A stretch of DNA of 64,000 nt from a virus (IMGVR_UViG_3300017963_000253:1-64000); one strand, 5' to 3'; shown: positions 26,594 to 29,893, counted from the stretch's first letter. Notes: a model not told the origin generated them from the sequence alone. Program-made: numbers and translations.

Positions 26594-26884
26594 ATGCAAA
26601 TAACCGTGGAGTGCGCGGAGTGCTCGAAGGAATTCGAGTTGACGATCCCCAGGGATCTCCCCGCTCAGATGAGGTTACGGAACGCAGGTACGCTCTCCGG
26701 GGTGACATGCTCTCATTGCGGGGGAGAGTTGGACTTGGAGACTCTGGATCTAAGCGAGACCGTCAACTCGAAGGCGAAGGAGAAGTCCCCCGCGAAGTCG
26801 AAGAAGTGCAAGAAGAAGGCTAGCGAGAGGCTGGCAACCCCTCCGGATCCGAACTTCGAGTACGGGGTGGGAGGTGCGAAATGA
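26594..26884 (+). CDS. zinc-ribbon protein
   Basis: CAEC...CSHC; AGGAGG RBS. Confidence 0.6.
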   Translation: MQITVECAECSKEFELTIPRDLPAQMRLRNAGTLSGVTCSHCGGELDLETLDLSETVNSKAKEKSPAKSKKCKKKASERLATPPDPNFEYGVGGAK

Positions 26885-27147
26885 ACGCCCCGGAACTGGA
26901 TAGCAAGGTCACCGCAACGGAAGCGGACGGTTGGCTCGTGAAGTCCTTCGAGGTTCCGGCGGAAAGACCAGACCCGTCGGTCTTCAAGTTGAAGGGGGTT
27001 CCCCAGGTGGAGGGGTTGGACTTCACTCTGGAGGGGAACGTGGTAACCTGGCGGACCGCAATCTCCCCCTACGCGCGGGTGGAGATCTTCGACTCCGGGG
27101 ACTCCCTGTCCTGGGGTTGGTCCGCGGTGGCTGGGGAAGACAGCTAA
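26881..27147 (+). CDS. hypothetical protein
   Basis: ATGA overlap, GGAGG RBS. Confidence 0.6.
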   Translation: MNAPELDSKVTATEADGWLVKSFEVPAERPDPSVFKLKGVPQVEGLDFTLEGNVVTWRTAISPYARVEIFDSGDSLSWGWSAVAGEDS

Positions 27148-27186
27148 CAACAGACCCCGGAGAGACCGGGGAGAAAGGTGGTTGGG

Positions 27187-27804
27187 ATGAGAAAGTACCT
27201 GATCGCGGCGTTCTTCGCCGCCCTACTTGCGGTTGAGATTGGAGGAGTCTACTCGGACGCGTTCGCAGGCACGGACGCCGCGGTCTCGGGGGTGACCGCT
27301 CCCTCCACTGCCTCCGCGGAAGTGAAGCTCCTGGACTCCTCCGTCGAGGTGAAGAAGGCGGACGCGGGGACCACCGCGGGGAGTTCCAAAGATCCCCCGG
27401 TAGAGAAGAAGGTGGAGGGGACTCAGAGTTGGTGGCAGGCGTTACTCTACGACGTTGTCTTCAACTTTATCCTCCCTGTCTTCACCCCGGTGATCCTTGC
27501 CCTTCTGATGTGGCTACTTCGAAAGTGGGGTCTGAAGATTGAGTACGAACGCCTGGAGAAGGTGGCGGAGTTCGGCTCGAACTACGCGGAGCAGAAGGGA
27601 GCGGAGTGGCTGAAGGAGAAGGGAGCGAAAAGCCCCGGGGCGAAGAAGGAGGAGTGGGCCTGGGAGCTGGTGGAGTCCCTGGACAAGAAACTGAAGGGCT
27701 CCAAGAAGCTCCAGGCGCTGCTCATCTCCAAGATCCCCGGGGCGGAGGCCTCCGTCTCCGAGGCGGCGAGCTACAAACCGGACGCCGCGATAAGGGAGGA
27801 GTAG
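27187..27804 (+). CDS. holin-like membrane protein (LL-H type) with N-terminal signal segment
   Basis: TM segment followed by NYAEQ...PGAKKEEWA, resembling the LL-H holin AEQ...GxEK pattern. Confidence 0.55.
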   Translation: MRKYLIAAFFAALLAVEIGGVYSDAFAGTDAAVSGVTAPSTASAEVKLLDSSVEVKKADAGTTAGSSKDPPVEKKVEGTQSWWQALLYDVVFNFILPVFTPVILALLMWLLRKWGLKIEYERLEKVAEFGSNYAEQKGAEWLKEKGAKSPGAKKEEWAWELVESLDKKLKGSKKLQALLISKIPGAEASVSEAASYKPDAAIREE

Positions 27805-27808
27805 GGAG

Positions 27809-28171
27809 ATGCCCTGGTGGGGTTGGTTGCTCCTGGGAGCCGGGGTCTCCCTCCTCTCCGTCTTGATCCTCTGGCTCATCCTGCGGAAGCGGGGAGGTGG
27901 GGAGGTGGACCGCGCCGCGCTGGCGGACGTGAAGTTTCGTCGCCTCCGGGAGGAGTTGGAGGCGGAGTCCGAGATGCGACGTAAGGCGGAGCGGATTGGA
28001 AGGGACCTCGAACTGGAGCTTCGCGGCGTTGCGGAGCGGAAGAAGAAGAGACTGGAGGAGGTAGATGAAGAGACTCGCAAGCGCTTTTCTGACCTTTCTG
28101 ACGATCCTGACGCTCTCCTCTCCCGGGTGGACGAGATCCTCTCCGGAAAAACCGGAACCGGACCTCCGTAG
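27809..28171 (+). CDS. inner-membrane spanin-like protein (Rz-like)
   Basis: N-terminal TM helix plus long coiled coil. Confidence 0.55.
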   Translation: MPWWGWLLLGAGVSLLSVLILWLILRKRGGGEVDRAALADVKFRRLREELEAESEMRRKAERIGRDLELELRGVAERKKKRLEEVDEETRKRFSDLSDDPDALLSRVDEILSGKTGTGPP

Positions 28172-28526
28172 GGTCAAGGTGGAGGTTGGAAAACCGGCAC
28201 CCTTCTCCGGGATCCTCCTGACCCCGGCGGCGCTGGCGAAGGTGATCACGGAGTTGGAGCGGAAGACGGTAACCTGTCAAACGGAGAGGGACGCGGAGCG
28301 CGCGGAGGCGGAGGCGAAGCGGAACGCGGCGGAGCAGGTCTGCACCGCTCGAGTGGACGCGGAGAGGGCCAAGACCGCGGCGGTAGCAGGTGAGCGGGAT
28401 GCCCAGCGGGTGATCTACGAGAAGGCCCTCTCCAAGTGCTCCGCCTCTCCGCCCTGGTACAAGAGCCGGTACCTGGCGTTTATCGCCGGTGCGGCGGTCG
28501 CGGGTGGGGTCTGCGCCGCCCGTTGA
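28065..28526 (+). CDS. secreted coiled-coil protein, putative outer spanin partner
   Basis: GGAGG RBS, signal peptide, 107 bp overlap with upstream gene, C-terminal hydrophobic segment. Confidence 0.55.
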   Translation: MKRLASAFLTFLTILTLSSPGWTRSSPEKPEPDLRRVKVEVGKPAPFSGILLTPAALAKVITELERKTVTCQTERDAERAEAEAKRNAAEQVCTARVDAERAKTAAVAGERDAQRVIYEKALSKCSASPPWYKSRYLAFIAGAAVAGGVCAAR

Positions 28527-28622
28527 GACATCTGGGAAAGACCGCTAGGAGATGAGCCGCCCCTCCGCTATCCTCTAGGGGAAGAGAGGGATTTTTGTTG
28601 ACCGGCTTGACTGGTGGTTCAG

Positions 28623-28844
28623 ATGACGTCGTCTCTACTGAAAGGACTGCTGGAGACCGGAGCACCGTGGGGTATCCTCTGCGCGGTGCTCCTGGCGGCT
28701 GTGTTCGCGCTCTGGCGACGTTGCAACCTCGTTTCGGACAAACTGTACGCCCTCGGGTTGGCTCAGGTGGAGCACGATAAGGAGATCTGCTTCGTGATGG
28801 AGCGGATCCGCGAGGACGTGAGGGAGATCAGGAGGAACGAATGA
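28623..28844 (+). CDS. small membrane protein (holin/antiholin-like)
   Basis: One TM segment GAPWGILCAVLLAAVFALW plus helical tail. Confidence 0.5.
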   Translation: MTSSLLKGLLETGAPWGILCAVLLAAVFALWRRCNLVSDKLYALGLAQVEHDKEICFVMERIREDVREIRRNE

Positions 28845-29242
28845 GTAGCAATTCCACCGGGGGTAACGGAGTGGGACACAGTATCGGGAGCGTCCTCCTG
28901 CAGATGAAGGTCCTCCGCCCCCGGGAACTGGCCGCGATCCTCAAGATCCAGGAGAAGTTGAGTCCGGAGGAACTCCTCGGGGAGTTACTCGTCTCCCGGG
29001 GGTTCGTCACCCGGGAACAGTTGGAGACCGCTCTGGAGTCCCAGCGGGCGCTCCGCTCCGGGAAGCCTCACGTTAGGGCGCTGGCGGTGGCCAGGGTTGC
29101 GGAGATCTCCGGGGGGAGGGTCCAGCGGTTAATGCGACGAACCAGGGCGGAGTGCGAGGCGGCGCGTCGGAGGGTGACCGGGGAGGATCACCCCGCGGTC
29201 ACCTCCCAGATGTTGGCGGTTGGGGAGGAGGACGGGAGATGA
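28841..29242 (+). CDS. stand-alone MshEN-like domain protein
   Basis: Two 24-aa motifs SIGSVLLQMKVLRPRELAAILKIQ and LLGELLVSRGFVTREQLETALESQ. Confidence 0.75.
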   Translation: MSSNSTGGNGVGHSIGSVLLQMKVLRPRELAAILKIQEKLSPEELLGELLVSRGFVTREQLETALESQRALRSGKPHVRALAVARVAEISGGRVQRLMRRTRAECEAARRRVTGEDHPAVTSQMLAVGEEDGR

Positions 29243-29697
29243 GCGGGGAGAAGCAGACGGACGGGCTGCAGAAGCTGAAGGCTCGAGCTATCAACGCCCT
29301 GATCTACCTCCTGATAGGGTCCCCCGGGGCCTACGCGGCTTACACGAACCAGGACCGGGCCACGGTGGAGATTGTCCGGAAGGTCAACGTGAAGCGCGCG
29401 GACGACATCGAAGGACTTCAGGACTGGACGCGGTCGAACAAGGACCTGATAGAGAAGCTAGCGAAGAGCCTGGAGGAGTTTCGCCGGGAAGTCGCGGAGG
29501 ACCGCCGGGAGACGAACCGGATCCTCTTCCAGCTGGCGAACCGGAGTCGAAGCAAAAGCGGGAGGATCCTCCGGGAGGAGATCCGGGATCGCCGGGAGAA
29601 GCCGGAACCGGTCCCCAGGATCACGGCGCAGATCAAGTCGCAGCGGAGGAAGCTCCCCACCCTGAAGCGCCCCGCCAAGGCGCTAGCGGACCTCTGA
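29239..29697 (+). CDS. membrane-anchored coiled-coil protein
   Basis: ATGA overlap at 29239; hydrophobic AINALIYLLIGSPGAYAAY then coiled coil. Confidence 0.55.
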   Translation: MSGEKQTDGLQKLKARAINALIYLLIGSPGAYAAYTNQDRATVEIVRKVNVKRADDIEGLQDWTRSNKDLIEKLAKSLEEFRREVAEDRRETNRILFQLANRSRSKSGRILREEIRDRREKPEPVPRITAQIKSQRRKLPTLKRPAKALADL

Positions 29698-29708
29698 GAA
29701 AAAATCGC

Positions 29709-29737
29709 TAGACGTCACCCCAAATTTGGAGTATGGT
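29709..29737 (+). promoter_or_regulatory. sigma70-like promoter
   Basis: TAGACG-17 nt-TATGGT preceded by an A-tract. Confidence 0.5.
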
Positions 29738-29743
29738 TCTCCG

Positions 29744-29849
29744 CGTAGATGGGAAACAGCCCGGGGCGGTCGAGACCTCCTCGGTAACGGAATCCCCGGG
29801 ATGGTCTACTTGAGAACCCCGCTCTTCAAAAAGGGCGGGGTTTTCTTTT
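29744..29849 (+). ncRNA. candidate structured small RNA or leader RNA
   Basis: Between promoter and terminator; pairings 29745-50/29804-09 and 29760-66/29794-800 enclose two small hairpins. Confidence 0.4.
29815..29849 (+). terminator. Rho-independent terminator
   Basis: AACCCCGCTCTT-CAAA-AAGGGCGGGGTT stem followed by TTCTTTT. Confidence 0.8.
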
Positions 29850-29893
29850 ATCCGGAGTTAAGTCGAATGACTCATTTTGGGATAGATGAGGGC

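Follow-up and report, generated by a model that had tools for sequence, protein, structure and literature searches.

A small phage protein related in sequence to the c-di-GMP-binding N subdomain of MshEN, and its pairing with a gene for a single-pass membrane protein

Among the receptor modules for c-di-GMP, just two are truly widespread, and MshEN is one of them (PMC5013675). In the ATPases MshE, PilB and PilF, the two helix-turn-helix motifs of its N subdomain (MshEN_N) clamp one molecule of c-di-GMP, which is contacted by the residues at positions 2, 3, 17, 21 and 24 of the motifs (PMC5013675). MshEN_N alone binds c-di-GMP with a KD of 0.35 uM and is also a weak binder of cGAMP; the mutation of any one of its conserved hydrophobic residues lowers the affinity more than 10-fold, and changes at Arg9, Asp12 or Gln32 lower it less than 5-fold (PMC5013675). 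The GSPII-B domain of PilF, which has Lys and Leu at position 1 of its motifs and no Arg, binds c-di-GMP with a KD of 6 nM, the consensus at the motif start has been extended to (R/K/L)LG, and GSPII-C retains binding with a Pro at position 1 of motif II (PMC11731258). There are also natural non-binders. In PilF GSPII-A both Gln24 residues have given way to others (His33 and Arg62), motif II begins with a Ser, an N-cap-stabilised helix fills the site, and restoring the consensus does not rescue binding (PMC12002112). XpsE has changes at Gly3, Leu17, Leu21 and Gln24 (PMC5013675).

The protein reported here is encoded by an uncultured tailed phage. The window, i.e. the whole 64,000-nucleotide stretch of DNA that was analysed (IMGVR_UViG_3300017963_000253:1-64000), makes up most of a 75-kb IMG/VR record estimated to be 74% complete. 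All assigned genes of the window lie on the + strand, beginning with those for the tail sheath, the tape measure, the baseplate and the fibres, followed by a group of small genes and finally by helicase, DnaB, family-B polymerase and RecA-like genes. No tRNA genes were found in the window, and the IbrA-like gene, whose relatives are spread over dozens of phyla, gives no pointer to the host. After the tail-fibre genes comes a unit of three genes, bracketed in the window by two terminator-like hairpins. The features of this unit are as follows:

28571..28600, + strand: weak terminator-like hairpin followed by a T run, bounding the three-gene unit on its upstream side
28623..28844, + strand: partner gene, encoding a 73-aa single-pass membrane protein (transmembrane segment by hydropathy; alternative GTG start at 28614)
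28841..29242, + strand: gene of the MshEN_N-like protein, 133 aa (open ORF; no transmembrane segment, no signal peptide)
28880..28951, + strand: motif I, residues 14-37 (Ser at position 1; Ile2, Gly3, Leu17, Leu21 and Gln24 present)
28952..28972, + strand: spacer of 7 residues between motifs I and II
28973..29044, + strand: motif II, residues 45-68 (Leu at position 1; Leu2, Gly3, Gly10, Leu17, Leu21 and Gln24 present)
29066..29179, + strand: predicted long helix, residues 76-113, with an Ala-rich face (A80, A82, A84, A87), from the AF2 model and conservation in alignment A1
29177..29215, + strand: C-terminal motif TGxxHPA(I/V)TxxML, residues 113-125, from conservation in A1
29239..29697, + strand: downstream gene, encoding a 152-aa protein (ATGA overlap; alignment A5)
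29812..29855, + strand: strong terminator-like hairpin of 15 pairs with a T run, bounding the three-gene unit on its downstream side

The ORF 28841-29242 is a real gene. An AGGAGG box (28830-28835) stands 5 nt ahead of its ATG, the stop codon of the membrane partner (28842-28844) overlaps its start in an ATGA, and its own stop codon (29240-29242) likewise overlaps the start of the 152-aa gene (29239). Both ATGA overlaps being real, the translational coupling to small membrane proteins on the two sides, as originally predicted, is borne out, with the limit that the hydrophobic segment of the downstream protein is only weak. The N-terminus of this 152-aa protein is basic, and the protein contains a single segment of weak hydrophobicity and a long coiled region that is charged; the hydrophobic segment falls below the hydropathy threshold used, and the protein may nevertheless be inserted in the membrane. 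It is conserved in the four lineage-A phages described below (~150 aa; alignment A5), and has neither a Pfam match nor a significant PHROG match.

As for the two hairpins, the upstream one (28571-28590) consists of a 6-pair stem followed by ATTTTTGTTG and is a consensus match only, and the downstream one precedes the probable true start of the helicase gene. The helicase ORF as listed (TTG at 29726) traverses the strong hairpin (29812-29845), and the helicase homologues and the PHROG match begin near residue 56-58, hence the true start is probably the ATG at ~29897. Such a start would leave ~200 nt untranslated after the 152-aa gene.

Several lines of evidence relate the first half of the 133-aa protein to MshEN_N. 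First, NF053729 ('cyclic di-GMP-binding domain, MshE-related'), the curated NCBIfam model of the 53-residue binding domain, matched the protein in two stretches with 41.4 bits versus a cut-off of 38 (E 9e-11). Second, a phmmer search of the PDB with the single sequence returned 13 sequences, of which the top 7, and 11 overall, were MshEN-bearing ATPases, including PilF, MshE and PilB. Third, the profile of the family alignment A1 matched PilF (E 4.5e-23), Geobacter PilB (E 1.6e-10, the two motifs and the spacer between them being aligned in register), the c-di-GMP-bound GSPII-B domain of PilF (E 1.5e-7) and the MshEN structure 5htl (E 4.3e-7). Fourth, the relaxed motif (L/I/V/M)G-x2-(LIVM)2-x9-(LIVM)-x3-(LIVM)-x2-Q occurs only twice in the six frames of the window, both times in 28841-29242 and in tandem; 50 codon shuffles gave a mean of 0.04 single matches and 0 tandem matches. 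The two tandem 24-residue motifs that the original prediction had placed at 28880-29044 were recovered from the ORF at exactly these coordinates, and the replacement of the leading Arg (Ser for motif I, Leu for motif II) and the 7-residue linker are as it had described them. From these comparisons, we conclude that the 133-aa protein is, judged by its sequence, homologous to the c-di-GMP-binding N subdomain of MshEN.

This homology does not extend to the whole MshEN domain, so that the stand-alone MshEN protein first proposed has to be narrowed to a protein of the N subdomain type. The check by profile search was split, NF053729 being above its cut-off and Pfam PF05157, though named 'MshEN', giving no match to the 133-aa protein at E up to 1. 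Knowing that in the relative P0003 PF05157 matches only the region that follows the repeats, we take this model to describe the C-terminal alpha/beta subdomain, which is absent here. Because PF05157 gave no match and AF2 puts a 38-residue helix in the place of MshEN_C, we filed the protein as MshEN_N-only. It is worth noting that PF05157 misses proteins with only the 53-residue c-di-GMP-binding motifs, and that in Pfam the MshEN-type repeats attract sub-threshold or spurious matches to DUF4388, FumaraseC_C and NHase_beta_N. Beyond DUF4388, no Pfam or PHROG family matched the 133-aa protein.

The structure predicted by AF2 with the family alignment (mean pLDDT 88.9) comprises four short helices (residues 15-21, 27-39, 42-52 and 58-71), then one of 38 residues (76-113), and at the end another short one. 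The four short helices stand at the expected places with a pLDDT of ~95, and the N-domain modelled alone gives the same four. In fold searches with the whole model the long helix dominated the matches, none of which was significant. Foldseek with the N-domain returned PilF GSPII-A in the first row and GSPII-B with bound c-di-GMP in the fourth, at E 2.2 and 6.1 and with a large rmsd, i.e. no significant fold match, in what is a comparison of a small apo helical model with the ligand-clamped bundles of solved structures. The nearest structural neighbours of the ESM Atlas model were MshEN, PatA_N and T2SSE proteins (TM 0.42-0.47). From the long helix onward, the C-terminal half of the protein has no relative in the PDB or Pfam.

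An exhaustive phmmer search of 1.84 billion representatives gave 694 matches at E up to 1e-3. Among the best 150 of these 694, about 60 were single-stretch full-length relatives of 112-144 aa, and the remainder were long multi-repeat bacterial proteins. The 133-aa protein and 57 full-length relatives were aligned (A1, 58 sequences), and the family, of proteins of ~125 aa, comprises at least 57 clusters at 50% identity. The homologues are only 40-50% identical, so that synonymous sites would be saturated. All ten relatives that were looked up came from metagenome sources, and six IMG/VR virus records, as well as metagenome contigs, contained full-length members. A tblastn search of 50,697 records of cultured phages gave no match, and the genomes of 401 Myxococcota and 401 Planctomycetota contained no full-length member; the matches in bacterial genomes were confined to the N-terminal 60 positions and lay within large proteins. 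Within what was searched, the family is limited to viral and metagenome DNA. The conservation of the main motif positions in A1 (n=58) is as follows:

Position 1: motif I, Ser 39, Thr 12, never Arg, Lys or Leu; motif II, Leu 31, Met 9, Arg 5, Val 4, Gln 3
Position 2: motif I, Leu/Ile/Val 57/58; motif II, Leu/Ile/Val 56/58 and Phe 2
Position 3: motif I, Gly 56/58; motif II, Gly 57/58
Position 17: motif I, Leu/Val/Ile 57/58; motif II, Leu/Ile/Val 56/58
Position 21: motif I, Leu/Val/Ile/Met 55/58; motif II, Leu/Met/Ile/Val 56/58
Position 24: motif I, Gln 50/58; motif II, Gln 55/58

The five contact positions (2, 3, 17, 21 and 24) of both motifs are thus kept in 50-57 of the 58 sequences each, when Leu, Ile, Val and Met are counted as equivalent. 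Outside the motifs, L71-R72-S73 is near-invariant directly after motif II, residue 80 on the Ala-rich face of the long helix is an Ala in 57 of the 58 members, and the C-terminal motif shows T113 in 42, G114 in 39, P118 in 49, A119 in 39, Ile or Val at 120 in 56, and L125 in 41 members. The family members lack the C-terminal alpha/beta subdomain of MshEN and have the long helix and the TGxxHPA(I/V)TxxML tail instead.

With regard to c-di-GMP binding, the Leu at position 1 of motif II falls within the extended (R/K/L)LG consensus and the Ser of motif I falls outside it, i.e. one half of the position-1 rule is found. A Ser or Thr at this place in motif I implies that the stacking contact on one guanine would be missing. 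Both motifs of the 133-aa protein retain Gln24. The replaced Arg and the 7-residue linker, which the original prediction had flagged, are less worrying than they seemed, Leu being within the consensus and the same spacer being found in Geobacter PilB. Taking these residues together with the non-binding GSPII-A, the good-looking motifs of which teach that sequence alone does not settle the matter, we give c-di-GMP binding by the 133-aa protein slightly better than an even chance. Any c-di-GMP ligand would be made by the host, because no GGDEF or EAL gene was found in the phages carrying the MshEN-like gene; c-di-GMP signalling in this host is assumed.

The genomic contexts of the family were collected via the neighbouring helicase, via one family member, and via a degenerate DNA pattern for TG..HPA(I/V)T..ML. 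The eight matches of this tail-motif pattern in genome contigs were all chance matches and were discarded, and single-protein locus scans with the 133-aa protein and with P0002 yielded no related loci. In all nine distinct contexts (lineage A, n=4: the window, L002, L003 and L007; lineage B, n=5: L006, L008, L105, L108 and L109), a gene for a single-TM protein of 73-117 aa lies directly upstream of the MshEN-like gene, which it usually overlaps or else precedes by 2 nt. This fixed pairing with a small membrane protein is the new fact of this report. In the 73-aa partner of the window, the TM helix is preceded by a conserved GAPW motif and followed by RR, and the tail, ~40 aa long, is charged and helical; similarly, the aligned partners (A4) share a GAPW-type motif before the TM segment, basic residues after it and a charged helical tail. 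The positive-inside rule predicts a cytoplasmic location for this tail, and the MshEN-like protein would likewise have to be cytoplasmic.

The lineage-A contexts have fibre and helicase neighbours in common, and the neighbours differ in lineage B. In L003 the pair comes directly after the fibre genes, without the other three membrane-protein genes of the window, and hence the pair or triad is a separable module. In lineage B, the pair is preceded by a small multi-TM protein, a His/Cys protein, a patatin-like phospholipase and a ~100-aa coiled-coil protein. The patatin-like phospholipase (PF01734, E 1.1e-23; L109:1936-2751, L008:5509-6336, and on the minus strand in L108), encoded two genes upstream of the pair, is possibly an envelope-lipid-degrading lysis enzyme. 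The His/Cys protein (173-185 aa; L109:1233-1790, L105:272-793, L006:6783-7334), which the small multi-TM protein always precedes, carries SHAW and LMC.E as invariant motifs, and this His/Cys pattern is suggestive of a papain-like hydrolase. Its assignment as a known peptidoglycan hydrolase was rejected, the protein having no Pfam or PDB relative and a sole PHROG match that is uninformatively named. The ~100-aa coiled-coil protein (L105:795-1109, L008:6346-6654, L006:7336-7629), encoded just before the membrane partner, has a conserved (R/K)CP(L/M)(L/M/F) motif and a sub-threshold DUF2730 match (23.5 bits vs 24.9).

Several other small genes stand between the tail fibres and the three-gene unit of the window. 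Directly after the 1025-aa tail fibre, 26594-26884 encodes a 96-aa protein with two CxxC pairs (zinc-ribbon-like), with positional counterparts that also have Cys pairs after the fibre in L002, L007 and L003. The 208-aa protein encoded at 27178-27804, which is hydrophobic near its N-terminus, has a long TM stretch in its centre and ends in a charged tail, is kept in L002 and L007; it has sub-threshold matches to ZorA (E 0.011) and otherwise no family match. The ORFs 27809-28171 (120 aa; N-terminal TM helix and charged coiled region) and 28065-28526 (153 aa; signal-like N-terminus and hydrophobic C-terminus) overlap by 107 nt in different frames, a layout that recalls overlapped spanin genes, but the lipobox Cys is absent. 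This ORF pair has homologues in L002 and L007 and is absent from the same place in L003.

The gene had been assigned to a lysis cassette, a claim that stands only in part. No enzyme domain, lytic or other, was found in 26594-29697, and the sole Amidase_2 gene is located 29-34 kb away in all four lineage-A phages (G000-G003); in lineage B, by contrast, the pair lies near the patatin-like lipase and the His/Cys protein, neighbours that are suggestive, although neither is a defined endolysin. The named PHROG matches of the partner are all of the lysis class, and all are weak and below significance: the Rz-like spanin phrog_214 (best E 0.005, in 4 of 11 members), phrog_2429 of the UviB/BhlA type (E 0.0013, in one member of 11) and the holin phrog_4884 (E 0.42). 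No Pfam match was found among the 11 members, and the only named ESM Atlas cluster was Holin_BhlA, with a feature score of 0.89 that is under the 0.9 line. Together, these weak lysis-class matches and the lipase neighbourhood of lineage B make a late, envelope-directed role plausible.

From the homology, the conserved ligand-contact positions and the pairing, we tentatively propose that the 133-aa protein is a c-di-GMP-responsive cytoplasmic partner of the upstream membrane protein, the most likely of the readings considered, which we rate somewhat below an even chance. The phage may read a second messenger of its host at the membrane, because the gene always comes directly after that of a tiny membrane protein. 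The first 70 residues would act as an MshEN_N-type module, and the second half, with its family-specific long helix and conserved C-terminal peptide, as the part that engages the partner. Because the genes overlap, the two proteins would be made together and in roughly equal amounts. The MshEN_N module would bind the c-di-GMP of the host; binding would alter the way in which the long helix and the C-terminal peptide engage the tail of the membrane partner through physical contact; and a late, membrane-located phage function would thereby be tuned to the c-di-GMP state of the host (sessile vs motile). The leading candidate for this function is a control over when lysis occurs, comparable to that exerted by a holin together with a soluble antagonist. 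In its most specific form, namely that in at least two tailed-phage lineages an MshEN_N protein seated on the tail of a holin-like protein gates lysis or another late envelope event by c-di-GMP, the proposal is unlikely.

The proposal has to be weighed against an MshEN-fold adaptor that binds no nucleotide and serves as an interaction or structural unit of a small membrane complex, formed with the upstream (and, in lineage A, also the downstream) membrane proteins. Such a complex could belong to a holin/spanin-like or a superinfection-exclusion device. We regard this adaptor as doubtful, yet deserving of serious attention. First, Arg is absent from position 1 of motif I in 58 of 58 members. 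Second, the helix bundle and its turns are themselves formed by the conserved Leu and Gly residues (PMC5013675), whose conservation alone is therefore no proof of a ligand site. Third, the natural non-binding relatives PilF GSPII-A (PMC12002112) and XpsE (PMC5013675) exist. Fourth, the predicted three-dimensional arrangement gave no significant match to ligand-bound MshEN_N, and a ligand is not needed to account, just as well, for the strict pairing with the gene of a membrane protein. Against a ligand-free adaptor, Gln24 contacts the ribose-phosphate and has no described structural role, and it is kept in 50 (motif I) and 55 (motif II) of the 58 members, whereas it is replaced in GSPII-A; furthermore, the XpsE-type changes at Gly3, Leu17, Leu21 and Gln24 (PMC5013675) are absent here.

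It is quite improbable that the protein is a cyclic-dinucleotide sponge, which would soak up c-di-GMP, or a CBASS signal such as cGAMP or the c-di-GMP of TIR-STING systems, and so reprogram the host or blunt a nucleotide-based defence. Its small size, its restriction to viral and metagenome DNA in what was searched and its binding module of a high-affinity type would suit a sponge, as would the weak binding of cGAMP by MshEN_N (PMC5013675) and the absence from the phages of enzymes that make or degrade c-di-GMP. Sponges for cyclic nucleotides are moreover an established class of phage proteins, examples being Acb2, Acb4, and also Tad1 and Tad2 (PMC10680739). Against this, the conservation of the long helix and of the C-terminal peptide is indicative of a protein partner, a 1:1 stoichiometric binder would require very high expression, and the absence of Pfam and PHROG matches beyond DUF4388 leaves no link to a sponge family. 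A cytoplasmic sponge is not expected to be paired with a membrane-protein gene or to follow fibre genes. The MshEN-like gene is invariably paired with one and is located after the tail fibres, not among the early genes, and this fixed pairing (9 of 9 contexts) argues against the free c-di-GMP sponge that had been suggested for it.

That the protein is an inhibitor or decoy of host MshE/PilB/GspE-type ATPases, which would mimic their N-terminal module and so block the type IV pilus or the T2SS, for instance to exclude superinfecting pilus-dependent phages, is very improbable and the pilus inhibition of the original prediction finds no support, for although the solved structures closest to it are N-terminal regions of PilF, PilB and MshE, and phage proteins that disable PilB exist, the C subdomain (the PF05157 part) is absent, the N subdomain is not described as mediating hexamer assembly or platform binding, the conserved membrane partner is left unexplained, and any effect could only be an indirect one, through competition for c-di-GMP, so that one is back at the sponge reading.

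Returning to a c-di-GMP-responsive partner of the membrane protein, its interest lies in the fact that c-di-GMP signals to a bacterium biofilm attachment vs free swimming, so that a phage that reads it could time the bursting of its host, or its handling of the envelope, accordingly. The family, with its compact proteins of ~125 aa and an evident candidate partner, lends itself to a direct test by means of two small recombinant proteins, and should binding fail, it would still be a clear case in nature of the MshEN_N fold reused as a protein adaptor. The top-ranked literature that mentions both MshEN and phages reports no virus-encoded MshEN, and the MshEN_N-only architecture with a long helix and tail is absent from the literature found.

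Compared with known systems, the phage pair resembles, in its layout, phage holins and their antagonists, such as LydA and LydB of P1, a holin and a soluble holin antagonist. In both cases the gene of a small membrane protein is followed, in the late region, by that of a soluble cytoplasmic protein; they differ in that there is no sequence relation and the partner here is only a candidate holin. To our knowledge, no described antiholin contains a second-messenger-binding module. Similarly to the sponges Acb2, Acb4, Tad1 and Tad2, which bind cyclic (oligo)nucleotides, the phage protein is small and virus-encoded. The viral sponge families are described as having no common evolutionary origin (10.1101/2025.07.12.664507), and the literature found on viral nucleotide sponges reports none that is based on MshEN.

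With regard to the module itself, the DUF4388/PatA_N (PATAN)-associated proteins of Myxococcota, Planctomycetota and Acidobacteriota (e.g. P0003, P0004 and P0008), the best matches outside the family (33-43% identity over the repeats), have the same type of 24-residue repeat, but are long, bacterial, with 2-10 repeats and other domains, and without the C-terminal half of the phage family. Geobacter PilB (5ZFR, 6OLJ, 5TSG) aligns with the phage protein without gaps over both motifs and the 7-residue spacer, but has Arg at position 1 of both motifs, its module being the N-terminus of a 580-aa hexameric motor. Finally, MshE (V. cholerae, 5HTL) and PilF GSPII-B/C (T. thermophilus, 8PKZ, 8PDK) likewise have two tandem 24-residue motifs with Leu2, Gly3, Gly10, Leu17, Leu21 and Gln24, together with four short helices (predicted by AF2 for the phage protein), and GSPII-B shares with it the Leu at position 1 of motif II. 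The phage protein, a putative binder of c-di-GMP, differs from these ATPase modules by a spacer of 7 residues vs 5 in MshE, by Ser or Thr, not Arg, Lys or Leu, at position 1 of motif I in its family, by being virus-encoded without the MshEN_C alpha/beta subdomain and without an ATPase, and by the addition, throughout the family, of a long helix and a TGxxHPA(I/V)TxxML tail.
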